Origin: Pseudomonadota bacterium
GTDB taxonomy: Bacteria; Pseudomonadota; Gammaproteobacteria; Steroidobacterales; Woeseiaceae
NCBI GenBank assembly: GCA_038534295.1
Contig: JBCAXA010000003.1
Span: 263,926-327,925 of the forward strand
Reading direction: 5' to 3'
DNA length: 64,000 bases
The notes beneath the pieces are model-generated. The model was not told the DNA's origin and searched no databases. It was given only the letters and a program-made list of their open reading frames with translations. This document shows positions 434 through 23,000 of this stretch, one piece after another (within the stretch, counting starts at the first letter, position 1; every line of letters begins with the position of its first letter). A program made the position numbers and the translations under genes.

Positions 434-2023
434 ATGTCAATCAACGATCACCTCATCAAGACCGGCGCCGACGGACGTCTCGACGGCACGTCCACGGCTC
501 AAATCGACAAATTGATTCGGCGGCTCAGCAAAGAACAGCGTGTCGTCATTCATCTGCACGGCGGTCTCGTGTCGACCAAAAACGGCATCGCCAGCGCGGC
601 CGAACTCGAGCCCGAGTACGAAGCCGCCGGTGCTTATCCGGTCTACTTCATCTATCGCACGGGGCTGTTGGAGATCGTCCGCAACAACCTCGGCGAAATC
701 GCCCGCGAGAAGATCTTCCAGCGCTTGCTCGTGAAGATCATCAAATTTGTCATGGGCAAGCTAACCGATTTCGGCGGTCGATCGACGTCTGCCGCCTTGG
801 CACTCCCCACCGAACGCGAGGTGCGAATCGAGCTGCAAAAATGTCGACAGAACATCGAACCGTTTGTCGCCGTCGCGCCAGCGCCCGCCGCGGCAGCGAC
901 AGGCCGGGGCGGTGCGGCAGCCGTACGTGGGCTAACGGCAACCGAAAAAGAACAGTTTCTTGACGATCTGTCCACGGATCCCGATCTGCAAACCGAGCTT
1001 CAGGAAATAATCAACGGCGCTGGTGATGTTGTCGGTGAGCACAGTCGCATGGCCGCGCGGGCCGGCGGCAGCGCGGCGTCCCGTGCAACGATGATGTCCG
1101 AGCATGTCGTGCATGAGTTGGTCGGTGACGGCTCCGCAAAAGACGCACGCGGTGTTTACAGCAGCGCAAAGTTCTTCGCTCATGCCATGAAGGTGCTTGG
1201 TCGGGTGATCAGTCGCTTTCGCTCCGGGCGCGACCACGGCGTTTACGCAACGGTAGTCGAAGAGCTAGCCCGCGAGCTCTACCTCGATAATGTCGGCCGC
1301 TTGGTGTGGAACACCATGAAAAAAGAGACGGCGCAGACGTTCGAGTCCGGGTCCGCCGGTGACGTACGTGGTGGCCGCTACTTCGTCGACGCGTTGAGCC
1401 AGATGGTCGCCGCGAGCGAAAACCCACCGGAAATCACCGTTGTTGCACACAGTCTGGGCTCAGTCTTCGCCTGCAACCTAATGGCCGATATTCGCAAAGC
1501 GCAGAAAGACGCTCAGCACCCCTGGCCTAAGGACTACCTCGTCGAAAACTTGATATTCCTCGCGCCGGCCGTCGAGCACAGTGTCTTCGCGAAGACGATC
1601 GGTCGCGACAGCGCAGCATTTCGACATTTTCGGATGTTTTCACTCAACGACACGCTCGAATCGGGTTATTGGGAAGTGCCGGTTGTGTATCCACGCTCGT
1701 TGCTTTATTTGGTGTCAGGTGCTTTCGAGGAAACCGACAAAGGCGACGGCGCATTCGATCGGCCGTTGGTCGGCATGCAGCGCTATCACACTCGAGCCAC
1801 CGTTTACCGTATGGCAGACGTCAAAAAGGTTCGCGACTACCTCAACGTGCGCGGTCTGGCGCGCGCCGTTTGGTCGGAGACGCCGGCTAACGCTCGTGCC
1901 GGGCAACGTTCCGATGCCATCGAGCATGCGACGTTCAACGACGTCAAGTTTCCGCCAGGCGAAAAGAAACGACGTGCGACGGTCGACAGCCTGCGGCACA
2001 TTATTCGTAACGGCATGAATTGA
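434..2023 (+). CDS. Alpha/beta-hydrolase fold protein (lipase/esterase-like, HGG oxyanion type) with a large internal insertion.
   Basis: It has a VVIHLHGG motif (HGG oxyanion hole) and a nucleophile elbow VVAHSLGS (GxSxG-like) about 300 aa downstream. GGAG lies 8 nt upstream of the ATG at 434, which is in frame with the track start at 332. Its stop overlaps the next gene. Confidence 0.6.
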   Translation: MSINDHLIKTGADGRLDGTSTAQIDKLIRRLSKEQRVVIHLHGGLVSTKNGIASAAELEPEYEAAGAYPVYFIYRTGLLEIVRNNLGEIAREKIFQRLLVKIIKFVMGKLTDFGGRSTSAALALPTEREVRIELQKCRQNIEPFVAVAPAPAAAATGRGGAAAVRGLTATEKEQFLDDLSTDPDLQTELQEIINGAGDVVGEHSRMAARAGGSAASRATMMSEHVVHELVGDGSAKDARGVYSSAKFFAHAMKVLGRVISRFRSGRDHGVYATVVEELARELYLDNVGRLVWNTMKKETAQTFESGSAGDVRGGRYFVDALSQMVAASENPPEITVVAHSLGSVFACNLMADIRKAQKDAQHPWPKDYLVENLIFLAPAVEHSVFAKTIGRDSAAFRHFRMFSLNDTLESGYWEVPVVYPRSLLYLVSGAFEETDKGDGAFDRPLVGMQRYHTRATVYRMADVKKVRDYLNVRGLARAVWSETPANARAGQRSDAIEHATFNDVKFPPGEKKRRATVDSLRHIIRNGMN

Positions 2024-2040
2024 GGTTTGGCAACGCTGCA

Positions 2041-3150
2041 ATGACTGCCGCCAGCGACGAGGTACCGAATCCCTACCATTACGCGGTGGTTGTAGGCATC
2101 GACAGCTACCCGTCACAGAAGCCACTCAAAGGTGCCCGCGTCGATGCTCGGCAGTTTGCCAAATGGCTGCGTCAACCTGAAAACGGCGGGCTCAAGCGGG
2201 AAAACGTCGGGCTCGTCGTCGATCCGTCAAAAAAAGACAAGCCACAGACTGACCGCGAATCCGCGGTGCCGACACGGATGCGGATCTACAAAGAGATACG
2301 CAAATTTGTCGAACGCGCTAAGCAAGCCGTCGATGCGGATCCGACCGTGTGGGACAGCACACGTCTGTATGTTTTTTTGGCTGGCCATGGAATCGCGCAC
2401 GGCCGCGAAAACGTCGCGCTGTTAATGGCCAACGTTGGCGACGAGTACCGCAGCGAAAATCTGTCGACCGGCCGAATTATCGATATTCTGAAGCTCCGGC
2501 AGGATTTCGCGGAAGTCGTGATCATTGCCGACTGCTGTCGCGACCGACCGCTGGCGACCGCATTCCCGCCGCTCGACCTCGACCCACGTGTTGGACAGAA
2601 CGGTGAGGTCAAGTGGTCCGTCTTTATGGGTTCGGAATTTGAGCGTCGCGCATTTGAGGCCGTACCGGAGGGTGCTGACCCAAACGATCCCAATCTGTTC
2701 CGCGGTCACTTCACCAAAGCGGTACTCGAAGGTCTGCGCGGTGGCTTCATCGACGGGCCCGTCAATATAGGAACGCTCAAGCAATTCGTTCGCGAGCGCT
2801 TGCGCAAACAGTTAGAAGGCCGTGGCTACGATCAGCGCGCGCGTCTGTTTGGCTACGAAGCCAGTGAAATCGTCCTTAGGCAATCGGCAACCGGTAGTAA
2901 CGACTCGCCTGCGCCGGCCAACGTTGAAATTGTGCTCGAAGTGTTAGCGCCGTTTGTTGGTGACGTTGCCGTGCATGGCGGCGAGAATGTGCAAATTACG
3001 CAGTTCCGCGTAACCGACGATCGTCGCCGCCATCGCGTATTGGCTAATGTCGGTATCAACCGCGTTGTAGCGGTCGGCGAGATCGACCACCGTTTTCAGG
3101 CTGACGGATTCTTCATCGCGCTAGTGGATGACGAGCATGTCCGGATCTAG
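2041..3150 (+). CDS. Caspase-fold peptidase (C14/CHAT-like); the catalytic His-Gly and Cys are present.
   Basis: YAVVVGIDSYPS matches a caspase N-terminal beta-strand, LAGHGIAHG carries the His of the dyad, and IIADCCRD carries the catalytic Cys. An alternative TTG start at 2020 overlaps the upstream stop (TTGA). Confidence 0.65.
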   Translation: MTAASDEVPNPYHYAVVVGIDSYPSQKPLKGARVDARQFAKWLRQPENGGLKRENVGLVVDPSKKDKPQTDRESAVPTRMRIYKEIRKFVERAKQAVDADPTVWDSTRLYVFLAGHGIAHGRENVALLMANVGDEYRSENLSTGRIIDILKLRQDFAEVVIIADCCRDRPLATAFPPLDLDPRVGQNGEVKWSVFMGSEFERRAFEAVPEGADPNDPNLFRGHFTKAVLEGLRGGFIDGPVNIGTLKQFVRERLRKQLEGRGYDQRARLFGYEASEIVLRQSATGSNDSPAPANVEIVLEVLAPFVGDVAVHGGENVQITQFRVTDDRRRHRVLANVGINRVVAVGEIDHRFQADGFFIALVDDEHVRI

Positions 3151-4693
3151 CGTCATGCATCGTGTACCGGTAACGGCTCATTGTCCGGACGGTCCGCTGC
3201 CTATCGCCATCGAGAACAATCGACTGCAAACCGTCGTTGGCGGTTATGGCGAGGCCGAGATCAATCTCGCGCAAGGTCTGTATCGTGCCCGGGTAAATAC
3301 CGGGGCTGAAGTGGCCGAGCGCTACATTGCAATTGCCGCAGGCGAGGACGCTAAAAGCATCGAGGTACCGTGCCGGATGGCGTCTGTAGCGCCAGTGCCG
3401 GGCATGCGCGGCGAATCGCCCGCACTCCTCGACGTCGTTAACTCGGCTTTGCAATCGCCGCCACCGTCTACGTCAGCACGAATTCTGATCTTGGTTCGTC
3501 GCTACGAGGGCACCGGCAAGATTGACACGTCGAATCTGCGCTTGGTCTTCGGCGACGACGTCGTTGCAGACATTGACGAGTGGCAGGCGGACCCGCACGG
3601 GCGCTTCACCTTACTGAGTGCTACGTTACCGCCCGGCGGTTACGGGCTCGAGTGGGCGTACAAGTGGCACCCGCGGTTCTCCAAGGGCGACGAGATAGCC
3701 GACGCGGTAACGTTGTCGCTGTGGGCTTGCGCCGGCTGGACAACCGTGGTGTTCCTGACGACCGACCCAACTATCGGTCATCGGCCGCGCATGAGCGGCA
3801 TGCACGCGCAAATGCGCCGCTTCGGATCGGTCATCGGTGAAGACCAATACGACACCTTGTGCCACCAGATCTCGCAACTGGCTATGAACGGCTTGCACGC
3901 CGGCCGCGCACTAGTACCTGATGACATCGTCAAGATCGTTAATGATTCGCGCTTTGCCGATCCACTGCTCGCGATCGTTGCGGCGCAGGCGCTGCTGTTC
4001 GACGATCGAGTCTCGCCAAGCGAAGTGATCGATACGCGTCGCGGGCATCGCGGTGTTCGCTGGACGCACTTCGATCACCTCGTCAGCACGCTACGTAAAT
4101 TGCTGCCCGACCATCCCGACGTGCTCGGTCTTTTTATGCTCGGCAAGGAGCTGCGCGGCGACCGTACGTCGCGAACCAAGGCAGACCCCATCGTCTGGCC
4201 GCCAATGCTGAATTCTGCCTTCCGCGTGATGATCGATCGCGATTGGCGCGAGCACGGCCTTATCCTGCCCGGCTCGCAGGCCGAGCAAGCCAGTCGTGCG
4301 CTCGTGCCGCACGGGCCATGGACCATGTGGTCCGAGCCGCAGGTTGGCGACGCCGCAGATATCGAAGCGCCTACGGACGAGCAACGTGCCGTTATCGGCG
4401 CGATCGTCGAGAAAGTTCGCGAGGACGGCATTCGACCCGATATACGCGCGCTGCTTGGTCTGGACGTCAGCGGCCGGTGGCGCGACGCCAAAGTCACCGT
4501 CGATCCAGAGCCGCAACGTCGTGTGCAAGCCATTGTTAACGATGCTATGGCATCAGCACGTACGCGCAGCAAAGCCGTCGCTAAAGCAGAGTTACAGAAC
4601 GCAGCGGCGACCATCGCGCTCGACAATCTTCGTCGTGCCAAACTGCCGCTGTCATCGGTAGTCGGCGCACTAGGCGGATTGCAGAAAAAGTAG
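3128..4693 (+). CDS. Hypothetical protein (521 aa), no recognisable motif. Operon member, coupled to the caspase-like gene by a 23-nt overlap.
   Basis: It is a long ORF with coding-like GC3 skew. Start/stop overlap with its neighbours on both sides. Confidence 0.5.
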   Translation: MTSMSGSSVMHRVPVTAHCPDGPLPIAIENNRLQTVVGGYGEAEINLAQGLYRARVNTGAEVAERYIAIAAGEDAKSIEVPCRMASVAPVPGMRGESPALLDVVNSALQSPPPSTSARILILVRRYEGTGKIDTSNLRLVFGDDVVADIDEWQADPHGRFTLLSATLPPGGYGLEWAYKWHPRFSKGDEIADAVTLSLWACAGWTTVVFLTTDPTIGHRPRMSGMHAQMRRFGSVIGEDQYDTLCHQISQLAMNGLHAGRALVPDDIVKIVNDSRFADPLLAIVAAQALLFDDRVSPSEVIDTRRGHRGVRWTHFDHLVSTLRKLLPDHPDVLGLFMLGKELRGDRTSRTKADPIVWPPMLNSAFRVMIDRDWREHGLILPGSQAEQASRALVPHGPWTMWSEPQVGDAADIEAPTDEQRAVIGAIVEKVREDGIRPDIRALLGLDVSGRWRDAKVTVDPEPQRRVQAIVNDAMASARTRSKAVAKAELQNAAATIALDNLRRAKLPLSSVVGALGGLQKK

Positions 4694-4751
4694 TGACGTG
4701 TCGTCGCTGACGGCGGCTAAAACGTCGGTCATAAAGCAGGGGGTAGAAATC

Positions 4752-5675
4752 GTGAAAGCACAAGGAATTCGTAAGCAAAGTCCGGCCGCTGTTTTCGTCT
4801 GTGCGTTCTTTCTGTCCGGTTGCGTCGCCACCGGCCCGTCGGTTGAATCCGCACCCGTGCAGGCGTTTCGCGACAGCGTTGCAACACTGCAGGCGGCATC
4901 TGAAACAGCGTTGGCTGCCGAGCGTGACCGCGCCTATTTTCGCTTTGCGCGCGAGCGCGGTGAGGTCAATGATTTTGCTGCTCTGCAGCTCGAAAGCGTG
5001 CAGCCTATGTCGCCGTTCGAAATGCAGCAGACCGGGAATCCGCTTTTTAGGAGTATCGATTCCGCACACGAGAGTCTCGGACAGCTGCACGACCTACTGC
5101 TTCGATATTGCGATGCGTTGCTCAGCATTTCCGGGCCAGATGGCGTTGCTACGTTCGACGCCGATGCTGAGGCCGGCGCGCTGCGGGATGCGGCTGAGTC
5201 GTTCGCAGCGTCAGCGGACGTCAGTTTGGATGTACCCGACGGTGTATTTTTCGGGTTTGCCGAAATTGCCCGAAACTACCTTGAAAGCCGGCGACGCGAC
5301 GAATTCGACGCATTAATCAACGCCTCACAACCGACGATTGCACGCGTTGCTGAGCTGGCCCAACAGTTGGTCACCCTGAGTGCGCTTGGCCTGCAAGCAG
5401 AATATGCTGCGGCCTACAGTGCAATGACCGACGATGTCGATTCGCTATCGGCATCTCGTCGTGCGCGCTTGCCCACTGACCTTCTCGAGCTGAACGAAGA
5501 GACGCTGCATCAATTGGCGGTCCTTGGCGACCTCAACGCCGCGTACGGAACTCTGCCGTCGACACACGCACGACTTGCAACGGCAAGCTCGGCCCGCGAC
5601 CTAGGTTTGTCGGAGATCGCCGAGTACTTGCGTTCGATTCGTCGCCGCTACAACGAATTCGAAAGGAGTAACTAA
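4752..5675 (+). CDS. Putative lipoprotein of unknown function (lipobox LSGC).
   Basis: A GTG at 4752 follows an AGGGGGT RBS. The N-terminus KAQGIRKQSPAAVFVCAFFLSGC is a typical n-region, h-region and lipobox. It is in frame with the track ORF from 4698. Confidence 0.5.
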   Translation: MKAQGIRKQSPAAVFVCAFFLSGCVATGPSVESAPVQAFRDSVATLQAASETALAAERDRAYFRFARERGEVNDFAALQLESVQPMSPFEMQQTGNPLFRSIDSAHESLGQLHDLLLRYCDALLSISGPDGVATFDADAEAGALRDAAESFAASADVSLDVPDGVFFGFAEIARNYLESRRRDEFDALINASQPTIARVAELAQQLVTLSALGLQAEYAAAYSAMTDDVDSLSASRRARLPTDLLELNEETLHQLAVLGDLNAAYGTLPSTHARLATASSARDLGLSEIAEYLRSIRRRYNEFERSN

Positions 5676-6022
5676 TGGCCATCAGCGCGTTTGATAAGAA
5701 GCTCGAGATTCTCAGCTTTGTCATTTTCCTGCACGGCAAACTCATTCGTCTGGCCCTAGTGCTCGAGCAGATGGGCGAAGACTCCGCGCGCGTACGCGAG
5801 CGAGAGGCCAAAGCGTTACAAACGATCGATGCTATGCGTGCTGCAATGCTCACGACGTGGAGCGGAAACGCTAAATCGGTCATGCGGGACCTGCGCGCGA
5901 TAAACGCAGATGCGCAGCGGCGGGTGAGAGAGCTCGAAAACACTATCGATCGCGTCGGCAAACTGACATCGGTTCTCGAGAGAATCGACAAAGCAATCGC
6001 ACTGGTTCGCAACTTGCTTTAG
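5675..6022 (+). CDS. Small hypothetical protein (115 aa), predicted helical/coiled-coil. Last gene of the operon.
   Basis: Its ATG overlaps the upstream TAA (TAATG). It is rich in heptad-like E/L/R/A stretches. Confidence 0.4.
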   Translation: MAISAFDKKLEILSFVIFLHGKLIRLALVLEQMGEDSARVREREAKALQTIDAMRAAMLTTWSGNAKSVMRDLRAINADAQRRVRELENTIDRVGKLTSVLERIDKAIALVRNLL

Positions 6023-6075: not shown

Positions 6076-6103
6076 TTGACATGAAACATTCGGTGCGTAT
6101 AGT
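6076..6103 (+). promoter_or_regulatory. Near-consensus sigma70 promoter (-35 TTGACA, 16-nt spacer, -10 TATAGT) facing the tRNA cluster.
   Basis: TTGACA is at 6076-6081 and TATAGT at 6098-6103. A GC-rich structured leader follows (CGGGGCAGG...CCTGCCCCG at about 6368-6430). Confidence 0.45.
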
Positions 6104-6474
6104 TCCCGACCCTATGAGTAAACAGCTCGACAACTTGTTTACGTATCGACCCGGTGGAGAACCGCGCTTGCCCATACGCGCGATTCAACGTCGACGGATT
6201 CGTATGTCCTCGCGAAACGGTAGCGCGATGACGTAGCCTTGCAGCTGACATTGCTGGAAGGCCAAAAGTTTTGTGCCTTCCAGAGCAAATAGGCCCTGGT
6301 TGGTTTTTCCGATCAGGGCTTTTTTGTTGCCCCGATCATTGTTCTTTAACAATGCGGATTGCATGAACAGCGGGGCAGGGTCACGTCTAGTGGCGTCTCA
6401 CGCAGGCGTACACTCGCGTCCTGCCCCGCGAAGCTGGGGCCCTCTTCACGAGAAGTGTCCCCCCACTCAACAAA

Positions 6475-6550
6475 AATCCGGTGGACGAAGGGTTACGTCG
6501 CCAGGCTCTCAACCTGGAAGTTGCGGGTTCAAATCCCGTCCGGATTTCCA
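6475..6550 (+). tRNA. tRNA-Glu (anticodon CUC), CCA encoded.
   Basis: Acceptor AATCCGG/CCGGATT, D-stem GACG/CGTC, anticodon stem CCAGG/CCTGG with loop CTCTCAA, T-arm GCGGG-TTCAAAT-CCCGT, discriminator T and CCA. Confidence 0.6.
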
Positions 6551-6555
6551 ACAAT

Positions 6556-6631
6556 AGACCAGTAGCTCAGTCGGTAGAGCGCACGTCTGATATGCGTGAG
6601 GTCGAGTGTTCAATTCACTCCTGGTCGACCA
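6556..6631 (+). tRNA. tRNA-Ile (anticodon GAU) with an A1.G72 mismatch.
   Basis: D-arm TAGCTCAGTCGGTAGAGC, anticodon stem CACGT/GCGTG with loop CTGATAT, T-arm GAGTG-TTCAATT-CACTC, then CTGGTCG-A-CCA. The 5' acceptor AGACCAG leaves A1 opposite G72. Confidence 0.6.
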
Positions 6632-6685
6632 ATCCGTGCAGCTAAGCCACTTGCAACAGGTGCGCTTACCTGCACGTCAAATTTG

Positions 6686-6760
6686 AGATCGATAGCTCAA
6701 TGGCAGAGCACCCGGTTCTTACCCGGGAGGTTACGAGGTCGAGACTCGTTCGATCTACCA
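6686..6760 (+). tRNA. tRNA-Lys (anticodon CUU), CCA encoded.
   Basis: Perfect 7-bp acceptor AGATCGA/TCGATCT, D-arm TAGCTCAATGGCAGAGC, anticodon stem CCCGG/CCGGG with loop TTCTTAC, T-arm ACGAG-GTCGAGA-CTCGT. Confidence 0.8.
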
Positions 6761-7140
6761 CCTGTGGTTAGATCGTGCCGAAGACCGGCGCCATCTAGCG
6801 GAGCCGCACTTCGGCGTTTTGATTTTTGTCACTGCGCGAGGCGGCTCCGATCTACCACCTTCAAATAGATCGTGCCGCAGATCGGCGCCATCTAGCGGAG
6901 CCGCACTTCGGCGTCGTGGTTTTTGCCACTGCGCGAAGCGGCTCCAATCTACCACCTGTGGTTAGATCGTGCTGTACACCGGCGCCGTCTAGCGGAGCCG
7001 CACTTCGGCGTTTTGATTTTTGTCACTTCGCGAGGCGGCTCCGATCTACCACCTTCAAATAGATCGTGCCGTAGATCGGCGCCATCTAACGGAGCCGCTT
7101 TTCAGCGCAGCTATTATTGCCGCGCAAAGCGGCTGCCCAC
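6751..7140 (+). repeat. Tandem direct repeat of four units with exact 97-bp period (starts 6751, 6848, 6945, 7042). Each unit begins with a copy of the tRNA-Lys 3' end (CGATCTACCACC) and contains a GGAGCCGC...GCGGCTCC hairpin. Units alternate two spacer variants (tgtggtt / ttcaaat).
   Basis: Read directly from the sequence. The fourth unit degenerates after about 55 nt. Track ORFs 6596-7283 on the + strand are repeat artefacts with reiterated peptides. Confidence 0.8.
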
Positions 7141-7239
7141 CACGTTCGCGCATGACTTCAGCGGTTCGGGTTCTGAGTCCCGACTGGCGCGCCGACGCTA
7201 ACCATTGCAACGCGTGTACCGAAGTTTGCCGACCACCCA

Positions 7240-7315
7240 GCGAAACTAGCTCAGCGGTCAGAGCGTACGACCACAAGTCGTAAGGTCGCAGGTTCGAATC
7301 CTGTATTTCGCTCCA
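7240..7315 (+). tRNA. tRNA of uncertain identity. The anticodon loop CCACAAG has C33, and position 34-36 reads ACA.
   Basis: Acceptor GCGAAAC/ATTTCGC with a C7.A66 mismatch, D-arm TAGCTCAGCGGTCAGAGC, anticodon stem TACGA/TCGTA, T-arm GCAGG-TTCGAAT-CCTGT, discriminator T and CCA. Confidence 0.45.
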
Positions 7316-7389
7316 TGGGAATTAGCTCAGTTGGTAAGAGCATACGGCTGTTAACCGTAAAGTCGCAGGTTCGACTCCTGCATTTCCGC
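7316..7389 (+). tRNA. tRNA-Asn (anticodon GUU), no encoded CCA.
   Basis: Acceptor TGGGAAT/ATTTCCG (U1.G72 and G4.U69 wobbles), D-arm TAGCTCAGTTGGTAAGAGC, anticodon stem TACGG/CCGTA with loop CTGTTAA, T-arm GCAGG-TTCGACT-CCTGC. Confidence 0.7.
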
Positions 7390-9222: not shown

Positions 9223-10776
9223 TCATTCAGCGGGTGGGAGCGCCTTTAGTCCCGCCAACGTGCGGATACGGCCAGGGGCCTTTTCAAGCGAGAGTTCATA
9301 AGCTTTACGAGCTTCTGAGACGTTTCCGAGTTCTCGATATACATCTCCCAACAGTTCAGCCATTGGCTGGACGGGTTGCGGCGGTCCGACGTCCAGTGGC
9401 CAGTTTGTTTCGATGTCCGCGGCTCGCTTCAACAACCTTAGCGCTGCGTCATGATCGCCTTCCGCCATCGCTATTTGGGCAGTCAAAGCCATCTGAAGTA
9501 GGGCCGGCGCAACGTTTGTGCGGCGCCCCGTCAACGGCACTTGCGGATTACGCATCCGAGACAAAGCAGATTCCGCAGACTCCAAGTCACCTCGCTGAAG
9601 GGCGATCACCCCGGCAAGATACAAATCCGTGATCTGACTATAGGGGGACAGATCGGAGTGATCGATCACAACCGACGAGAGTGGGTGGTCCCAGTCCTCC
9701 GTGTCGATGATGAAGGACGCACGAGCTTCGACATAGTGCATTCGCGCCATCTTGAAGGACGGATAGAGCTCAGTCTGCCGCGCGATCAGCGCGATGTACT
9801 CGAGCGCTTCGTCGTACTTTTTCTGCTGTTGAAGACCGTAGGGCAACCAGCTCAAGGAGTGGAACGTTTCAGGATGATACCGGTCGTCTGGATTCGATTG
9901 ACGCGACACCGCTTCATGGAAGGACAACTTGTTTCTTCCGACACCCTCGTCCCACATCGCGAGCGGGTAAAAAATGTGCGCCCCCATATGCAGCGCGTGA
10001 ACGGCCGATGGTGCGACCTTGATGTAATCCCTGGCGGCTCTCAGTCCGAGCGGCGCATGTATCGGATCATCATAGCTATGGATGTTGTAGTGCAGGGCGC
10101 CTGGGTGAAGCGGATTTCTGTCGAGAATCTCTTCGGTGACGGCACCTGCTCGCATGTAGAAAAACGGCTTTCGGCCACCGGAGCGGGCCAGAAGGGACAA
10201 GGCATAAAAGGCCGCGGCATCGAGGTCATCCGGGTACTTCGTCTTTAAGTCTAGAAGTGCGTCGGAATAGCGTTCTCTGGCGCGTTGCCGATCGTCACCC
10301 TCAAGCAATATTTCCAGCGTCCGCAGATAATCTCGTTCTCGTTCGGTTTGCCCCTGCTGAATTCGAGCGCTCGAGGTTGATCCCAGACGCGACATGATTT
10401 CTCTGGCGGCTTCGATGTTCGACGTTGGCCAAAGCGGGTGCCAATGAGTTAGCGCTTCGCCCCAAGTCGCCATAACAAACTCAGGATCAATCGCGAGCGC
10501 CCTTTGGAAGGAGTTGCGCGCATCAGCATACTCAAAGTTATGCAGTTGAAGCAGCCCGATCAAAAACTCTGAATGCGCTTCTGGCGCCCCTGTCGCGTCA
10601 AAGTCTGTCTGACCGTACTGCACCAACGCTTGCGTAGACTCAGTGCTGAGGGTGACGACTGAATTAGTCGTTTCACAGGCTGTAACAAGCAAAACGACAG
10701 ACGCCAACGCGAAGCCTTCGAGGACCTTCCTTCGCATGTCCTTCCTCCGAATCGCAGAAACGCTCTTGATTGACAA
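9223..10776 (-). CDS. TPR-like repeat lipoprotein.
   Basis: The N-terminus ends in the lipobox LLVTAC. Helical repeat-like regions follow (NFEYADARNSFQRALAIDPEF..., KYDEALEYIALIARQTELYPSF...). Confidence 0.45.
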   Translation of the reverse strand: MSIKSVSAIRRKDMRRKVLEGFALASVVLLVTACETTNSVVTLSTESTQALVQYGQTDFDATGAPEAHSEFLIGLLQLHNFEYADARNSFQRALAIDPEFVMATWGEALTHWHPLWPTSNIEAAREIMSRLGSTSSARIQQGQTERERDYLRTLEILLEGDDRQRARERYSDALLDLKTKYPDDLDAAAFYALSLLARSGGRKPFFYMRAGAVTEEILDRNPLHPGALHYNIHSYDDPIHAPLGLRAARDYIKVAPSAVHALHMGAHIFYPLAMWDEGVGRNKLSFHEAVSRQSNPDDRYHPETFHSLSWLPYGLQQQKKYDEALEYIALIARQTELYPSFKMARMHYVEARASFIIDTEDWDHPLSSVVIDHSDLSPYSQITDLYLAGVIALQRGDLESAESALSRMRNPQVPLTGRRTNVAPALLQMALTAQIAMAEGDHDAALRLLKRAADIETNWPLDVGPPQPVQPMAELLGDVYRELGNVSEARKAYELSLEKAPGRIRTLAGLKALPPAE

Positions 10777-16000: not shown

Positions 16001-16047
16001 TAATTACATGTGAGAGTCTTGCGTTATCACATGTGAGTCTGTATAGT
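16001..16047 (+). promoter_or_regulatory. AT-rich promoter island (15892-16047) with two copies of a 10-bp palindrome: TTACATGTGA at 16004-16013 and TCACATGTGA at 16027-16036. Candidate -35 TTGCGT at 16018-16023 and -10 TATAGT at 16042-16047.
   Basis: Sharp local AT-rich stretch in a GC-rich window; palindromes and hexamers read directly. The second palindrome lies in the promoter spacer, suggesting repressor control of the downstream operon. Confidence 0.45.
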
Positions 16048-16054
16048 GCTGGCC

Positions 16055-16681
16055 ATGAACGTGAAAACGTCAGCACACTACCAGCGCGAGTACCGGCGCC
16101 GCCTGCGTGAGCAGGGCCTTGTAAAAAAGGAGATCTGGATCCGTCCGGAGAACGCCGACCGGGCCCGCGCGGTAGAAAAGGAGCTTCGTGACGAGAGTGC
16201 CAACGGCAATGCGTCCGGCGGTCGCGATTCACGCAGTCCCTGGCGTACCGGTGCGCTTTACGACGAGCTTGCAAACGACCCGCTCGTCCGCGATGCGCAC
16301 GCGAGCATCGAATTGATCGAAGGCGTCGATCCGACGCTGCATCTGATCATGCACGACTACGGTGATCTGCCGGTATTCGTGTCTGTTGCTGGCGATCAAA
16401 TCATTGCCGAATCGGTGCTATGGCCGGTATCGCTGGTACGCGATTCCATCGAGTTTAACGAGACCATTCTGCGGACCCACAAGTACTTCCCGCTGTCGAC
16501 GATTTGCCTCGGCCAGCGGATGGATCAGGACTACTACCTGATGTTTGGGTCGCTGAGTTCCGAATCGTCATTGGCGGACATCGTCCACGAGATCGAAGTT
16601 CTTGCCAGTAACGTTATCCACGCCACTGAGGCGTATGTCGATTTACTGCAATCAGATCACGTATCTGAAGGAGAGAAGTGA
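16055..16681 (+). CDS. Hypothetical protein (about 208 aa), first gene of the PspA-flotillin operon.
   Basis: ORF; the basic N-terminus (YRRRLREQGLVKKE) could be nucleic-acid binding. The track start is a GTG at 16046. Confidence 0.45.
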   Translation: MNVKTSAHYQREYRRRLREQGLVKKEIWIRPENADRARAVEKELRDESANGNASGGRDSRSPWRTGALYDELANDPLVRDAHASIELIEGVDPTLHLIMHDYGDLPVFVSVAGDQIIAESVLWPVSLVRDSIEFNETILRTHKYFPLSTICLGQRMDQDYYLMFGSLSSESSLADIVHEIEVLASNVIHATEAYVDLLQSDHVSEGEK

Positions 16682-17364
16682 TGAACGTCTGGTCGAAAAT
16701 GATGACCGCGTTGCGCGGCGGTATTAACGAAGCCGGCGAGGTAATCGTCGACAGCCAGGCGCTGCGCATTCTGGACCAGGAAGTCCGTGACGCTGCGGAG
16801 GAACTGAAACGTTCCAAAGACAGCTTGGCGGCAATCATTGCGCGGCAAAAGGTCTCCGAGGAGCGTTCGACGAAGATCGCTGAGGAGATCGCCGAGCACG
16901 AAGGCTATGCGATGGCGGCGATCGAAAAGGACGACGAAACGCTCGCCCTTGAAGTTGCCGAGAAAATCTCTGCGCTCGAAGTGAAGTTCGAGACCGAGAA
17001 AGCAGCCGGCGCCGGTTATGAAGAAAGCGCCAATCAGCTGCGCGACGCGATCGCTGACGCCGAGCGCGACATTCAGCGCATGAAGCAGCAGATCGACACC
17101 GTCAAGGCCACGGACAGCGTCCAGAAAGCCCAGGCGGCTGTGTCCGAACGGCACAGTGGTTCGGATTCCAAGCTGCGTACGGCCATGGAGTCACTGGAGC
17201 GTATTAAAGAGCGCCAGGAACTTCGGTCTGCACAAATGAAGGCAGCGCGTGAGATTGCAACCGAGAGCGGAGATGCGTCCCTGTCAGACAAGCTCGAGGC
17301 GGCCGGTATCACGAAGCACAGCCGCAGCGCCAAGGAAATCCTGGAGCGGCTGAAAGCCAAGTAA
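16681..17364 (+). CDS. PspA/IM30 (Vipp1/ESCRT-III-like) family protein.
   Basis: GAAGGAGAG RBS; TGATG stop/start overlap with the upstream gene. It is all-helical, and its N-terminus WSKMMTALRGGINEAGEVIVDSQALRILDQEVRDAAEEL resembles the PspA N-terminus. Length about 227 aa. Confidence 0.7.
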   Translation: MNVWSKMMTALRGGINEAGEVIVDSQALRILDQEVRDAAEELKRSKDSLAAIIARQKVSEERSTKIAEEIAEHEGYAMAAIEKDDETLALEVAEKISALEVKFETEKAAGAGYEESANQLRDAIADAERDIQRMKQQIDTVKATDSVQKAQAAVSERHSGSDSKLRTAMESLERIKERQELRSAQMKAAREIATESGDASLSDKLEAAGITKHSRSAKEILERLKAK

Positions 17365-17407
17365 AGCTGTCTTTTAACAACGCTACGCACGAGGGAGGTC
17401 ACCGCGT

Positions 17408-18100
17408 ATGTTCGCCATACTGTTCAGCGACAAGATGGATCCGTTCTATCAGAACATCGCGTCGTTCCCAACGGCGGTCTTCACGGTCCTCCTCGTGCTC
17501 AGCGTGTTCTTCTGGGCCGGTGCGGTACTTGGTTTTATCGATCTCGACTTTCTCGATTTCGATACCGACGTCGACCTTGACGTCGCCGACCTCAACGCCG
17601 ATTCGCCGCATACCGGCCCCGATGTGCTCGCCGGCTTGCTGCTTAGGCTCGGTCTGACCGGGGTGCCGGTAACGGTGAGCTTGTCGATCCTCATTCTGAT
17701 CGGCTGGTTCATCTGCTACTACGCCGTGTACTTGATCAATCCGATCGTGCCGGGGCGGTTTCTCGAGATCATCGTCGGTATTCCGATCCTCATCGGTTCG
17801 CTGTACCTCGCGGCGCTGATTACTGCGCAGCTCATCAAGCCGCTGCGGCCGTTGTTCGAGAAAGCGACCCAGGAGACCCATAAACAACTGTTGGGTCAGA
17901 CAGCCGTCGTGCGCACGTCGCGCGTCGACAAAGATTTTGGCGAAGCCACCGTCGATGACGGCGGCGCCGGCCTGATCCTCAAGGTCCGCGCTACCGGCGA
18001 CGACACGTTTCAGCGGGGCGATCGTGTCGTGCTCATCGAGCGCATCGACGAGGCCAGCACGTTCCGCGTGATTTCAGAAGACGAGTTCGTCGGTCAGTAG
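17408..18100 (+). CDS. YqiJ/NfeD-like inner-membrane protein (TM helices plus C-terminal beta-rich soluble domain).
   Basis: GAGGGAGG RBS. Three or four hydrophobic helices are followed by a C-terminal domain (VVRTSRVDKDFGEATVDDGGAGLILKVRATGDDTFQRGDRVVLIE) typical of NfeD OB-like tails. It sits immediately upstream of a flotillin gene, as in yqiJK. Confidence 0.55.
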   Translation: MFAILFSDKMDPFYQNIASFPTAVFTVLLVLSVFFWAGAVLGFIDLDFLDFDTDVDLDVADLNADSPHTGPDVLAGLLLRLGLTGVPVTVSLSILILIGWFICYYAVYLINPIVPGRFLEIIVGIPILIGSLYLAALITAQLIKPLRPLFEKATQETHKQLLGQTAVVRTSRVDKDFGEATVDDGGAGLILKVRATGDDTFQRGDRVVLIERIDEASTFRVISEDEFVGQ

Positions 18101-18139
18101 GCCGACGAGCAACAGGAAACAACCTACTGGGAGTCAACT

Positions 18140-19999
18140 ATGGCGGATTTGTCCGTACTCATGCCCATCGTGGTCGGCGTCGGTGTAACGCTGCTGATCC
18201 TGCTGGGCCTCGCGGGGCTGTTCAAAGCGTTCTACGTGAAGGTCGAGCAAGGCACGGCGCTGATCGTCAATGACATGAGCTCCAAGCCGAAGGTGCATTT
18301 CACCGGTGCCCTCGTCTATCCGATCATCTACAAAAAGGAGCTGATGCGCATCTCGCTGATCACGCTCGAAGTGGATCGGCGCGGTAAAGACGGACTGATC
18401 TGTCGCGACAACATGCGCGCGGACATCACGGTCGCGTTCTACCTCCGGGTCAACGAAACGGCCGAAGACGTTCTAAAGGTCGCCAAATCCATTGGCGCGA
18501 ACCGCGCGTCGGACAAGATTGCGGTCGATCAGTTGTTCTCCGCAAAATTTTCCGAAGCGCTGAAAACCGTCGGTAAGCAAATCGAGTTCGTGCAGCTGTT
18601 CGAGAATCGCCAAGAGTTTCGGGAGAAGATCATCGAGGTCATCGGCGACGACCTGAACGGTTATGTCCTCGAGGACGTTGCTATCGATTACCTCGAGCAG
18701 ACGCCGAAGGGAGCCTTGGATGCATCGAACATCCTCGACGCCGAAGGCATCAAGAAGATCACCGAGCTCACGGCGGCACAGAACGTTCGAACCAACGAAC
18801 TCGAGCGCGACGAGCAGCTGGCGATCAAAAAGAAAGACGTAACTACCGTCGAGGCCATGCTGGAACTCGAACGCCAGCAGGCCGACGCCGAAGCGCGTCA
18901 GCAGCGCGAGATTCTGTCGATTCAGGCACGCGAGGAAGCAGAAACTCGCAAGGTGCAGGAAGAAGAGCGCCGCCGCGCCGAACAGACCCACATCCAGGTC
19001 GTTCAGGACCTGTCGGTGCAGACCGAGAATCAGAAGCGCGAGGTCGAAGTCGCTGAGCAAAATCGTCAGCGGGCGGTCGCCATCGAGCAGGAGAAAGTGG
19101 TTCGGGCGCGGGATCTCGAGGTCGTCGCTCGCGAGCGCGAAGTGGCGGTCGAAAGCGTTCTTGCCGAGAAAGCGGTCGAGGTCGAAAAGAAAGAAATCGC
19201 CAATGTCATTCGCGAACGCGTTGCGGTCGACAAGACCGTTGCGGTCGAAGAGGAACGCATCAAAGAGGTACGCGAAGTCTCCGAAGCAGACCGGCTGAAG
19301 CAAACAGCCGTTCTTGCGGCCGAAGCCACCGCCGAAGAAGAGCGCATCAAAGAAGTCGTCGCCGCAAAAGCGACGGAGACGGCGGCGAACCACAAAGCCA
19401 AGGAAATCACGACACTGGCCGAAGCGCGGCTTGCGGCGGCCGGCAAAGACTCAGAGGCGAAGAAAGTGCTTGCCGAAGGTGTGCAGGCCGAAGAGGCGGC
19501 CCCAGGGCTTGCCAAGGCAGATATCGTCCGTGCCACCGGTACGGCCGAAGCCGAAGTCATCAAAGAGACCGGTACCGCCGAAGCTTCGGCTAAGACCGAA
19601 GTGGGCATGGCCAACGCCGCGATCACCAAGGCGCAGTTCCAGGCCGAAGCCGATGGTCTTACCGACAAGTTTGCAGCCATGGCCGGCATGAGTGGCGAGA
19701 CTCGCGAGCACGAGGAATTTCGCATGGCGCTCGAAACCGCCTTCAAGGAAGCCCTGGCATCGATTGAGGCCGGTAAGGAAATTGCCAAGGAGAACGCCGA
19801 GATCCTGTCCATTGCGCTCGAGAAAGCGCACATCGACATCGTCGGCGGTGAGGAGCACTTCTTCGACAACTTCGCCAAGTCGCTGTCGATCGGCAAAGCG
19901 GTCGACGGTCTCGCCGACAAATCCAGCGTGGTCAAAGCCTTGCTCGCCAAGGTGGCCACGTCCGGTGACAACGGCGCCGGTACAACGTCCAAATCGTAA
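18140..19999 (+). CDS. Flotillin-family SPFH protein (YqiK/FloT-like) with a long E/A/R/K-rich coiled-coil.
   Basis: N-terminal TM, then an SPFH core (GTALIVNDMSSKPKVHFTGALVYPIIYKKELMRISLITLEVDRRGKDGLICRDNMRADITVAFYLRV). An extensive EA-repeat coiled-coil follows. Confidence 0.8.
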   Translation: MADLSVLMPIVVGVGVTLLILLGLAGLFKAFYVKVEQGTALIVNDMSSKPKVHFTGALVYPIIYKKELMRISLITLEVDRRGKDGLICRDNMRADITVAFYLRVNETAEDVLKVAKSIGANRASDKIAVDQLFSAKFSEALKTVGKQIEFVQLFENRQEFREKIIEVIGDDLNGYVLEDVAIDYLEQTPKGALDASNILDAEGIKKITELTAAQNVRTNELERDEQLAIKKKDVTTVEAMLELERQQADAEARQQREILSIQAREEAETRKVQEEERRRAEQTHIQVVQDLSVQTENQKREVEVAEQNRQRAVAIEQEKVVRARDLEVVAREREVAVESVLAEKAVEVEKKEIANVIRERVAVDKTVAVEEERIKEVREVSEADRLKQTAVLAAEATAEEERIKEVVAAKATETAANHKAKEITTLAEARLAAAGKDSEAKKVLAEGVQAEEAAPGLAKADIVRATGTAEAEVIKETGTAEASAKTEVGMANAAITKAQFQAEADGLTDKFAAMAGMSGETREHEEFRMALETAFKEALASIEAGKEIAKENAEILSIALEKAHIDIVGGEEHFFDNFAKSLSIGKAVDGLADKSSVVKALLAKVATSGDNGAGTTSKS

Positions 20000-20007
20000 G
20001 ACCTGTC

Positions 20008-20028
20008 CGGCCGCCCGTCGGGGCGGCC
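20008..20028 (+). terminator. Intergenic GC hairpin (GGCCGCCC-GTCG-GGGCGGCC) followed by TCCTTTC; possible partial terminator/attenuator between the flotillin gene and the giant ATPase gene.
   Basis: An 8-bp perfect stem read directly; the downstream T-tract is weak. Confidence 0.35.
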
Positions 20029-20058
20029 GTCCTTTCACCGCAACGGGAGCGATGACGC

Positions 20059-23000
20059 GTGGAAAAAGGCGCCAAACCGACCAATCTCGTCGAACAAGCC
20101 GTCGCCGAAGGCGGTGCGTACGAGGTCATTCAGCAGCGACTGGTAACGCAGGGCGGCGAGCTCGATGCACTGGCGCAGCGTCTGAACGAAGGTCGGGCCA
20201 ACGAGTTCGGTTCGACCGAAATGGCGCTGGCCGCACGCTCGCGCGTGCGTACCGAAAACAACTGCGTCGGCCGGGACATCGTTCAAGTCGGCGAGCTTTT
20301 GGTCTTCGGCTACAACGTCTTCATTGGCCTCAAGACCACGACGAGCATCGAAGATGTCTTCGCGCTTTATCGACTGCAGCGCGAAGACGACAGCTACTCG
20401 ATGTCGCCGGTACCGCTGGAAGGCTCGTTCCTTACCGATGCCCGCTTTCGGCACGACTTCGACGAGCTGTATCGATACTACAAAGAAACACGGTTGATAC
20501 AGCTGGTCCACAAAGGCGGCAAACTGCTTGCGAGTTTTCAGATCGGCGAGCGGCTCGAGGACACCCGCGTATTTCGCTGGGAAGTGTCGCCGGACGGCAA
20601 GCAGCTGACATACATCGACAACCGCGGTGAGCGCGACATCGAACTGCCGCACCCTTACGACTTCGAGTGGCAGCCAACGACCCGCGACGACATCGTGCAC
20701 GGTCGTTTCCCACACATCAACGTTCGCAATCGCGTCTTCATCGAGATTGCCGAAGGCGAGCTGGCGATCAAGCTCGAAGACAACACCGAGGGCGGTCAGG
20801 GCGTACACAGCGAAGCTGTCGATGAGCCGCATCAATCCCTGGATGACTGCGAGGTCGACTACGCCGAGGTTGGCGAGCTGCTGTTGTTTCGCGTGCTGCC
20901 CTACAAAGAAGAAGACCGGCGCTATTACGTCTTCAACGCGTTTACGTCGTCGGTGACGCGCATCGACGCCATTGGCGATTCGTGCATCCAATTGCCAGAA
21001 GACCATGGTTTGATCTTCCCCGGCGGCTACTACCTCGCAACCGGTGAAACGCGCTCATTTAACGATCAAGAGTCCGACGGTTTGAAGTTCAAGCGAAGCT
21101 TTCGCTCGCCGAACGGCGAAGACGTGCTGTACGTCTTCTATGAGCCCAGCGAAGGCATTGTCGCGCTGCTGTCGTACAACTTGATTTCCAAGTCGCTGCA
21201 GAACCCCATCTTCGGCCACGGCTATGCGCTGGCCCAGGACGGCACGATCATTGTCTTTAACGCCGATCACGAGGCGACCCGGATCCACCCGATGCAGATC
21301 TGGATAACGCCATTCGTATCGGATGAGTTCGCGAGCAAGCAGCCGGTCGGAGAGTCGTTTTTCTCCCGCATCGGTAACGCCGAGTTGGTGCGGGGCGTCT
21401 CCGACGTCTTTAGCATTACCCAGCTCATTCGCGAGTCTGAAGCCAGCGTCGCGCATTACGAAGCGCTGCGTCGATCGGCGACGAGGCTGTTCGACAGTCA
21501 TTTCTGGATCGATGATCCGGACGCCTTCGGGATCGGCACGGCTGTGCGCGAGATTACCGCTACCGTTGAGCTCGTCATCGACGAGTTCGAGAAAGTCGAG
21601 GCCATCAAGCGCCAGTCCGACGCTGCTTTGCGCGAGGCTGAGGACACGCAGCAGAACATCGAAGCCACGACGCAGTCCGGCGCTTGGAACAGTGTCGACG
21701 AGTTTGTCGATGCGCTCGATCGGATCCGGCGCCAGCGCGGTCATCTGCAAACGATTCGCGAGTATCGATACATCGATGTCGATCGGATAGACGCGATGGA
21801 CGAAGCGCTCATCGAGCGTAGTGAAGAACTCGCCGGCAAGACGGCCGAGTTTCTTGCCGAAGAAGACGCCTTACAGCCGTATCGCGACCAAATCGTCACG
21901 GTTGCCGACGGCCTCGAAGCGCTCGAAACCGTGGCCGCCATCGAGCCACAGCTCGAAGCGCTCGATAAGGTGGCGGCCGGTCTCGACCTGTTGTCCGAGC
22001 TGATCGCGAGCTTGAAAATCGCCGATGCGAGCGTGCAAACGGCGATCGTCGACTCGATCTCGCAGGTCTACGGCAGCCTCAATCAGACGCGAGCCCGCGT
22101 TCGCCAGCGACGCGAGACCCTTGGTGCGAGCGAGTCCGTGGCGCAGTTCGGCGCACAGTTCAAACTGTTCGGGCAAAGCGTCGTCAACGCACTCAGCCTC
22201 GCCACCTCGCCGGAGCGTTGCGAAGATCAGCTGTCGCGATTGCTCGTGCAGCTCGAAGAATTGGAAAGCCAGTTCAGCGACTCCGAAGCGTTCCTCGCCG
22301 ACATCATGCAAAAGCGCGAGGAGGTCTACGAGACGTTCGAGGCGCACAAGCAACGCTTGCTCGACCAGCGCCAGGCGCGCGCACAGACCATGGCCGATGC
22401 GGTCTCGCGCATGTTGGCTAATGTTGAACGGCGCACCAAGCGCTTCCAGTCCCAGGACGAGCTCAACACGTACCTAGCGTCCGATCCGCTGGTCGTCAAA
22501 ATTCGCGACCTAATTGCCGATCTGCGGGAACTCGATAGTGCCGTCAAAGCCGACGACGCCGAAGCACGCTTGACAATGTTGCGCGATCAGGCGGTTCGGT
22601 CCCTGCGCGACAAGACCGAGCTGTACGCCGACGACGGTCGGGTTATCCGACTCGGGTCACGACACCGCTTTTCCGTCAATCGCGAAGACCTCGATCTCAC
22701 GATCATCCCGCGCGATGACGAGCTGTATCTGCATCTGATCGGTACGCAATTTTTCGAGCGTATCGACGACGCCGAACTCAATGCGCTCAAGCCCTATTGG
22801 GTGTTGAGCGGCGAGTCTGAGTCGGCTGACGTCTATCGCTCGGAGTATCTGGCGTTTCGGGTCATCGAAGCGGCCCGCAACGGCGACGACGGTCTCAGCT
22901 GGCCTGATCTCGTCGCCGCGTCGACGGACGAGGATGCGCTGCAAACGCTCTGCCGCAACGTCGCTACGCAACGTTACAAAGATGGCTACGAGAAAGGCGT

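Follow-up and report, generated by a model that had tools for sequence, protein, structure and literature searches.

A conserved caspase-hydrolase triad with an unnamed third partner, a candidate conflict module in a Woeseiaceae chromosome

Why is a gene for a caspase-like protease packed between the genes for a lipase-like hydrolase and a large protein of no named family, and which of the surrounding genes belong with it? The question is raised by a block of five + strand genes (g1 to g5, positions 434-6022) in a stretch of 64,000 nucleotides (nt), hereafter the window, from a Pseudomonadota bacterium of the Woeseiaceae (assembly GCA_038534295.1, contig JBCAXA010000003.1, positions 263,926 to 327,925). 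An earlier sequence-only reading had taken the five genes as one unit, had suspected an abortive-infection system and had described the pairing of protease and hydrolase as uncharacterized. Our analysis suggests that g1, g2 and g3 are the chromosomal copy of a widespread but patchy three-component conflict module (abortive infection or programmed death), in which the hydrolase is a zymogen opened by double cleavage. We give this reading a probability of roughly 55%.

All five open reading frames (ORFs) of the sequence-only reading were found again, on the strand and in the tight packing that it had described. Independent gene calls on the public contig, which carries the same genes, give products of 529, 369, 518, 325 and 115 amino acids (aa) for g1 to g5. 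Two of the starts were revised. The stop of g1 is TGA at 2021-2023 and, as had been noted, a TTG at 2020 overlaps it, but the start of g2 is more probably the ATG at 2041, since this is the choice of the gene callers and the homologs begin about 10 residues before the motif HYAVVVG. An exact look-up of the 376-aa product of the TTG start gave no match; the deposited gene starts at 2041. The stop of g2 is TAG at 3148-3150 and lies inside g3. The two genes do overlap as had been claimed, but by 14 nt (3137-3150, + strand, ATGTCCGGATCTAG) and not by 23 nt (3128-3150), because the ATG at 3137 is the likelier start of g3, given that an M-S N-terminus is invariant in close homologs and that the 14-nt overlap recurs elsewhere.

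Conservation of the triad and exchange of its third component

Species-representative genomes were scanned with a g3-only peptide pattern, which gave 27 loci, 26 of them evaluable for the caspase. A metagenome scan added 64 further loci, of which 41 had at least 900 nt upstream for the caspase and 29 had enough sequence for the third component. The genome loci belong to Brocadia, Gaiellaceae, Polyangiales, Opitutus, Chloroflexia, Planctomycetes, Acidobacteriota, Verrucomicrobia, Alphaproteobacteria, Dactylosporangium, Cytophagales and others. A gene for a caspase of this family lies immediately upstream of g3 in nearly all loci (25/26 evaluable genome loci and 39/41 metagenome loci). The 14-nt overlap, with the junction NTG-TCN...TCT-RR, recurs in ~18 independent loci, from Actinomycetota, Brocadia, Planctomycetota, Chloroflexota, Acidobacteriota, Verrucomicrobiota, Myxococcota and Alphaproteobacteria, and this conservation implies translational coupling of g2 and g3. 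The typical arrangement in homologous loci is a protein of ~500 aa, the caspase and a protein of ~460-495 aa, the outer two being homologous to g1 (39% identity) and to g3 (25-31%). The functional link of the protease with the hydrolase and with the large protein of no family, proposed from the window alone, is thus borne out by conserved gene association, and only g1 to g3 form a conserved unit.

The component upstream of the caspase is exchangeable. A g1-type hydrolase is adjacent in 15 of the 27 genome loci and 18 of the 29 metagenome loci (~60%), and its place is taken by an astacin/M10-like zincin of ~230-285 aa in 7 of the 27 and 6 of the 29 (~20-25%); the two were never found together in one locus. 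In one further locus (L005) an LCAT-type lipase stands in place of g1, flanked by a C11 peptidase and an Endonuclease_NS protein.

Domain fusions of g3 relatives extend this picture. In a Cytophagales metagenome-assembled genome (MAG; L033, 6759-9302), caspase and g3 form one 847-aa ORF preceded by genes for a STAND NTPase and an EAD5-trypsin protein. A Planctomycetota MAG (L032, 7419-12836) carries g3 within an 1805-aa ORF together with TIR, CHAT, STAND (AAA_16/NB-ARC) and TPR domains. One g3 relative (P0068) is fused to a trypsin-like domain (Trypsin_2) and to Endonuclease_NS (NucA), and the 1252-aa g3 encoded on plasmid pRgalIE4872d of Rhizobium gallicum IE4872 (L034, NZ_CP017105.1, 3167-9672) is collinear with it; the triad of this cultured organism has the 14-nt overlap, and the stretch is unannotated in PLSDB. 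Another relative (P0138) is fused to NNH7 and NACHT, and still others to FAD oxidoreductases or Ig domains. The g3 homolog of Dactylosporangium sp. McL0621 (L023, 7878-10619; 913 aa) contains a WhiB domain (E = 5.5e-14) in its C-terminal part, and response-regulator models match one of the aligned g3 sequences as well, so that some g3 proteins may be connected to modules of transcription or signalling. Genes of defence type neighbour some of these loci: CHAT (L015), McrB/McrC (L016) and the STAND and EAD5-trypsin genes of the Cytophagales locus. In an alphaproteobacterial MAG (L021, 6918-8004), the caspase 5' of g3 is split into ORFs of 204 and 185 aa, which may reflect a frameshift, a pseudogene or an assembly error.

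Across phyla the system occurs patchily, and its flanking regions show no synteny. Carriers are particularly frequent in Streptomyces, Myxococcota, Planctomycetota and Chloroflexota. The plasmid search returned two Rhizobium chromids only, and the PHROGs scan returned nothing.

A paracaspase-like protease

The g2 gene (2041-3150, + strand) encodes a 369-aa cysteine peptidase of the caspase fold (clan CD, C14). It matches Pfam Peptidase_C14 (PF00656) with 35.4 bits against a cut-off of 21.4 (E = 1.2e-8) and the PADLOC model 'caspase' with E = 1.1e-14. Of the label 'C14/CHAT-like' given earlier the C14 part stands, together with the His/Cys dyad, while the CHAT part (PF12770) is not supported, with E = 0.26 and 11.1 bits against a cut-off of 24. 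In an alignment of 20 homologs, G115-H116-G117 (GHG) and C166 of the motif DCC are invariant and C165 is kept in at least 90%; the catalytic residues are His116 (nt 2386-2388) and Cys166 (nt 2536-2538). Asp164, two residues N-terminal to the catalytic Cys, is also invariant and may correspond to the S1-pocket Asp of MALT1. The homologs are ~350 aa long, 32-36% identical and mostly from Streptomyces.

The AlphaFold2 model of g2 (predicted local distance difference test score 83.5) shows a caspase-hemoglobinase fold followed by a C-terminal Ig-like beta-sandwich at about residues 290-369. A Foldseek search of the PDB with this model gave the caspase-Ig3 portion of MALT1 as best match (E = 2.5e-11); next came Arabidopsis metacaspases 4 and 9 and yeast Yca1, and procaspase-1 and caspase-8 were also among the matches. 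The order of domains in g2, a caspase domain and then an Ig-like domain, is that of MALT1. Its sequence identity to MALT1 and the metacaspases is only 12-19%, and neither a death domain nor any other domain precedes the caspase domain in g2. MALT1 and the metacaspases are specific for a basic P1 residue (Arg or Lys), and it is scaffold-driven oligomerisation that switches MALT1 on. By analogy, g2 is predicted to be a paracaspase/metacaspase-like protease which cuts after Arg or Lys.

A hydrolase with two conserved basic sites

The g1 gene (434-2023, + strand) encodes a 529-aa protein in which no signal peptide was seen; Pfam, motifs and an ortholog alignment together suggest a cytoplasmic alpha/beta-hydrolase, predicted to be a latent (zymogen) effector. 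Over the elbow region it matches PF05990 (DUF900) with 31.8 bits against a cut-off of 20.5, and the other lipase-family matches in the Pfam scan are weak. The motifs HLHGG (residues 40-44) and AHSLGS (residues 338-343) are ~295 aa apart, which agrees with the HGG/GxSxG hydrolase with a large insertion described in the sequence-only reading. In an alignment of 12 ortholog sequences, H40/H42-G43-G44 (the HxHGG oxyanion motif), H339-S340-x-G342 (the nucleophile elbow), E409 and H498 are invariant; at the sequence level g1 thus carries the elbow, the conserved His and the oxyanion-hole motif of an alpha/beta-hydrolase. The orthologs, from several phyla, align over the full length at 30-46% identity, 'insertion' included, and adjoin a caspase in more than 13 loci.

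The same alignment points to two candidate cleavage sites. Outside the conserved core motifs, only two columns are (near-)universally K or R: one at R116, followed by S117 (codon 779-781), and one at R239, followed by G240 (codon 1148-1150). The second reads [KR][GA] in 12/12 orthologs; the first reads [KR][STAG] when a shift of one column is allowed. Both adjoin indel-rich, variable stretches, and the family-specific insertion lies between them, so that residues 116-239 (779-1150, + strand) would form an inhibitory middle segment with a conserved basic P1 site at either end. It is possible on these grounds that the caspase cuts g1 at R116 and R239, as a protease with a preference for basic residues might.

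The constant partner g3

The g3 gene (3137-4693, + strand) encodes a 518-aa constant partner of the caspase, which belongs to an unnamed family and is entered at NCBI, within a Pseudomonadota MAG, as 'hypothetical protein AAFM91_14030'. The model suggests tandem Ig/transthyretin-like beta-sandwiches (~10-228), a helical domain (~237-400) and a C-terminal three-helix tail (457-517). No match was found in Pfam, NCBIfam, PADLOC or PHROGs, an NCBIfam scan of 40 family members gave no family match for g3, and no structural match was found; the protein therefore stays without assignment, as the sequence-only reading had left it, with its length revised from 521 to 518 aa. A helix-turn-helix in the C-terminal tail, seen by eye around a conserved GLP motif, is not claimed, since no profile or fold match accompanied it.

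The family is large. Word-index searches with g3 alone or with a 40-sequence profile returned g3 and one other protein, and an exhaustive HMMER search was needed to reveal 455 cluster representatives at 50% identity (E <= 1e-3). The N-terminal ~400 aa are conserved in the family while the C-termini vary. We infer from this architecture that g3 might be a non-enzymatic sensor or scaffold which controls the caspase.

Proposed mechanism and alternative explanations

In the mechanism that we propose, g2 would be made in a fixed proportion with g3 by way of the conserved 14-nt overlap, and g3 would either hold the protease inactive or assemble and activate it upon a trigger such as phage infection. 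The Ser-His hydrolase g1 would be made in an inactive form, with a middle segment of ~120 aa separating the N-terminal HGG strand region from the C-terminal catalytic part. Once activated, the caspase would cut g1 after R116 and R239 and release the middle segment (~123 aa), and the two remaining pieces would form an active lipase/esterase that would kill the cell through a presumed lethal substrate. The exchange of effectors, the fusions to TIR, CHAT, STAND/NACHT and trypsin with NucA, and the defence-type neighbours of some loci favour a conflict system, and the abortive-infection reading put forward earlier is favoured by the same evidence. The cleavage logic is proposed on the basis of the two conserved basic sites which bracket the g1 insertion and resembles that of LcHydrolase of Lysobacter capsici (discussed below), with a larger excised segment.

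Several points weigh against this interpretation. At the first basic site of g1 the next residue may be S, T or A as well as G, and a sensor or scaffold role for g3 is drawn only from its architecture and its constancy. PADLOC names only the caspase among the five proteins, many related loci have unremarkable neighbours (GH114, TetR, DinB, GATase), and the system was absent from the phages and viral contigs searched. The window around the block is itself ordinary chromosome and no defence island.

These points can be read in other ways. An extension of the proposed scheme, which we put forward only tentatively, is that the caspase and g3 are the core of an undescribed immune or death signalling platform, where g3 as sensor or scaffold activates the MALT1-like protease by assembly and interchangeable effectors are licensed in turn. 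If true, this would be a prokaryotic counterpart of scaffold-driven paracaspase activation, with a hydrolase zymogen, a zincin, NucA or TIR as effectors. A different assignment of roles, which appears unlikely to us, makes g3 and not g1 the primary substrate of the caspase: g3 would be a latent carrier that releases its C-terminal part (a small helical tail here; trypsin with NucA, TIR or an oxidoreductase elsewhere), and g1 or the zincin would be an optional second effector or a processing enzyme of the cascade. It would explain why g3 is the invariant partner while g1 is dispensable in ~40% of loci, and it agrees with the C-terminal effector-type domains of ~13% of the top g3 relatives, with the low-confidence linkers at 294-297 and 443-452 that precede the C-terminal helices in the g3 model, and with R417, which together with a following A or G is invariant within the variable linker of five close homologs. 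The proteolytic release of fused effectors has moreover been proposed for such systems by Kaur et al. 2020 (PMC7159879). However, no conserved basic linker site was found across 40 family members, some of the fusions are to sensor-type domains (NACHT, STAND-TPR) rather than effectors, and the stand-alone g3 of the window has no recognisable toxic domain.

The ordinary chromosome context with membrane-stress genes (SPFH, PspA) nearby, and the lack of phage or plasmid copies other than the two Rhizobium chromids, would also fit a triad without any role in defence, serving the housekeeping or developmental maturation of an intracellular lipase/esterase, for example in membrane-lipid remodelling or in the regulated autolysis of multicellular or colonial bacteria. 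The phyletic spread described above is in keeping with this, and Kaur et al. tie comparable systems to a multicellular habit. We nevertheless consider it improbable: the distribution is patchy with non-syntenic flanks, the hydrolase is swapped for unrelated enzymes (zincin, LCAT lipase, NucA, TIR), and STAND/NACHT fusions and McrBC, CHAT or EAD5 neighbours occur in some loci. Patchiness, swapping, fusions and neighbours of this type are features of conflict systems and unlike those of conserved metabolism. Least probable of all, and in our view very improbable, is that all five genes make up one system that requires g4 and g5, for instance as a membrane anchor or target and a small regulator. 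The tight packing of the block speaks for it, as do the apparent translational coupling of the last two genes (a 4-nt gap before g4, and a TAATG with a strong Shine-Dalgarno sequence at g5) and the fact that no promoter-like and no convincing terminator-like site was found within the block. On the other hand, g4 and g5 have no family assignment, and everywhere else the triad occurs without them.

Local additions g4 and g5

The g4 gene (4698-5675, + strand) starts with GTG at 4698, 4 nt after the g3 stop (TAG, 4691-4693), and encodes a 325-aa putative lipoprotein with the lipobox FLSGC, in line with its earlier description. The g5 gene (5675-6022, + strand) encodes a small protein of 115 aa and is joined to g4 by the TAATG at 5673-5677, with AAAGGAG as Shine-Dalgarno sequence just 5' of it; both junctions were read directly and are those reported before. 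Neither Pfam, PADLOC, NCBIfam nor PHROGs gave a family match for g4, and g5 has only sub-threshold matches to helical families such as WXG100. No homologs of either were found in 32 related loci, in the metagenome scan or on plasmids, and we therefore treat them as lineage-specific riders. The proposal of a five-gene unit is accordingly given up: g4 and g5 are co-transcribed locally, lie outside the conserved system and have no inferable role.

Comparison with known systems

Caspases paired with lipase-like hydrolases are already known, and the statements that the protease has no known partner and that the pairing is uncharacterized were too strong. Kaur et al. 2020 (PMC7159879) report that the caspase domain in their conflict systems always has an alpha/beta-hydrolase gene as neighbour, and they list swappable components as a sign of a genuine conflict system. 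For Lysobacter capsici, Evans et al. 2025 (PMC12642450) show biochemically that LcCaspase cuts LcHydrolase after R73 and after R117, each followed by G, and that LcHydrolase is a protease-activated zymogen. The published caspase/hydrolase module occurs in Actinobacteria and Pseudomonadota.

The triad resembles the LcCaspase-LcHydrolase pair in that a caspase-like protease lies beside a cytoplasmic lipase-like hydrolase, an adjacency seen here at over 30 related loci besides the window. A possible further likeness is the internal segment between two conserved basic sites that are each followed by a small residue, as seen in the sequence of g1. However, g1 with its 529 aa is longer than LcHydrolase (~290 aa), and so is the segment predicted to be excised (~123 aa, compared with 44 aa); the two are likened here by gene neighbourhood and site pattern. 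In the published caspase systems the protease carries fused sensors (beta-transducin repeats, STAND) or is part of VMAP ternary systems, whereas g2 is short and has g3 as a separate, near-obligatory partner. A g3-like partner is not mentioned in the examined text of the caspase/hydrolase papers. In the present family a zincin can also stand in for the hydrolase.

Similarity is also seen to CATRA (Burroughs & Aravind 2020), which we compared through the descriptions in citing papers only; these present it as a caspase-dependent ternary system with variable effectors and cite it for an alpha/beta-hydrolase and the small protein CATASP. Unlike CATRA, the triad has no TPR protein, and the nearest TPR gene of the window (9223-10776, - strand) is on the far side of the tRNA cluster that follows the block. 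CATRA models are presumably present in the NCBIfam release that we used, and no model of this kind matched g1 to g5 or the 40 g3 relatives. The NucA-peptidase architecture (System 3 of Kaur et al. 2020, PMC7159879), mostly alphaproteobacterial, is matched by the g3 relatives of the Rhizobium plasmid and P0068, which have trypsin-like and Endonuclease_NS domains on one polypeptide. The g3 of the window has neither trypsin nor NucA, and the combination of a caspase with the N-terminal module of g3 is not described in the examined text of that paper.

Like g2, the EACC1-caspase (NCBIfam NF047832; Kaur 2020 and Evans 2025) is short, stands alone and has a conserved partner gene next to it, and its subfamily is related to that of g2. 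In contrast, g2 scores 47.2 bits against the model's cut-off of 140, and there is no gene for EACC1 with its single transmembrane segment 5' of the caspase; the 5' gene is that for the 529-aa hydrolase, and the partner g3 lies 3' and is soluble, with 518 aa. No EACC1 model matched in the Pfam scan of the five proteins. Neither was a gasdermin-fold protein found beside the protease, and Pfam, PADLOC and NCBIfam gave no partner of cyclic oligonucleotide-based antiphage signalling systems or of type III CRISPR (CD-NTase, Cas/CARF/SAVED) in the five proteins. That gasdermin, NACHT and cyclase domains are missing from this copy had been recognised correctly from the sequence.

In the literature examined, as far as it was accessible, we found no description of the g3 family as a constant partner or of the long-insert subfamily of hydrolases. 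The gating of death effectors by proteases is coming to be seen as a dominant principle of bacterial immunity and has parallels in the caspase and paracaspase signalling of eukaryotes. The known caspase/hydrolase pair here gains a third, near-obligatory partner from a family which is large, present in many phyla and unnamed in the family libraries searched. It is possible that this family is the missing sensor or regulator of stand-alone caspases that have no fused sensor domain. Rhizobium gallicum IE4872, as a cultured carrier, offers an experimental host. If the triad proves to be CATRA or another system already known from computational work, it would count only as one more well-annotated member of that system, with its cleavage sites predicted.

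Chromosomal context of the block

The block lies between a tRNA-Ser gene (78-167, - strand) and a cluster of five tRNA genes (6475-7389), both confirmed by ARAGORN and Rfam. The description 'tRNA-bounded' holds as a statement of position only, and a tRNA-linked integrative island was rejected: no integrase was found among the neighbours in the window, no att-like direct repeats around the block and no shift in GC content at the block, and thus we found no evidence of a mobile island.

A promoter of sigma-70 type (TTGACA-16-TATAGT, 11/12 match) is seen at 6076-6103, downstream of g5. It is followed by a strongly folding region of ~220 nt (z = -3.9), at the end of which lies a terminator with a 13-bp stem (6291-6321). 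The region 6076-6325 may be a small RNA or a leader 5' of the tRNA cluster; no Rfam family was above threshold in it. Within the cluster, a tandem repeat of 97 bp (3.6 copies, 84% matches) occupies 6751-7098 between tRNA-Lys and tRNA-Cys, its start falling within the 3' end of tRNA-Lys (6686-6760). The anticodon of the tRNA-Cys is ACA according to ARAGORN, which is unusual in bacteria.

Further downstream, the window carries genes for SPFH, TPR, M48 peptidase, DUF2170-PspA, a DUF3686 ATPase, an alpha-2-macroglobulin with PBP1C, and a Ser/Thr kinase. The alpha-2-macroglobulin (1896 aa) and the PBP1C-type penicillin-binding protein (774 aa) at 35453-43467 are joined by a stop/start overlap at 41143 and represent a classic bacterial gene pair. 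At 16046-25305 lie, in this order, genes for DUF2170, PspA/IM30, two proteins without family (230 and 619 aa) and a 1748-aa DUF3686/DUF7902/AAA ATPase. The region of the 619-aa ORF, at 18-20 kb, shows a strong AT skew of 0.17-0.29.

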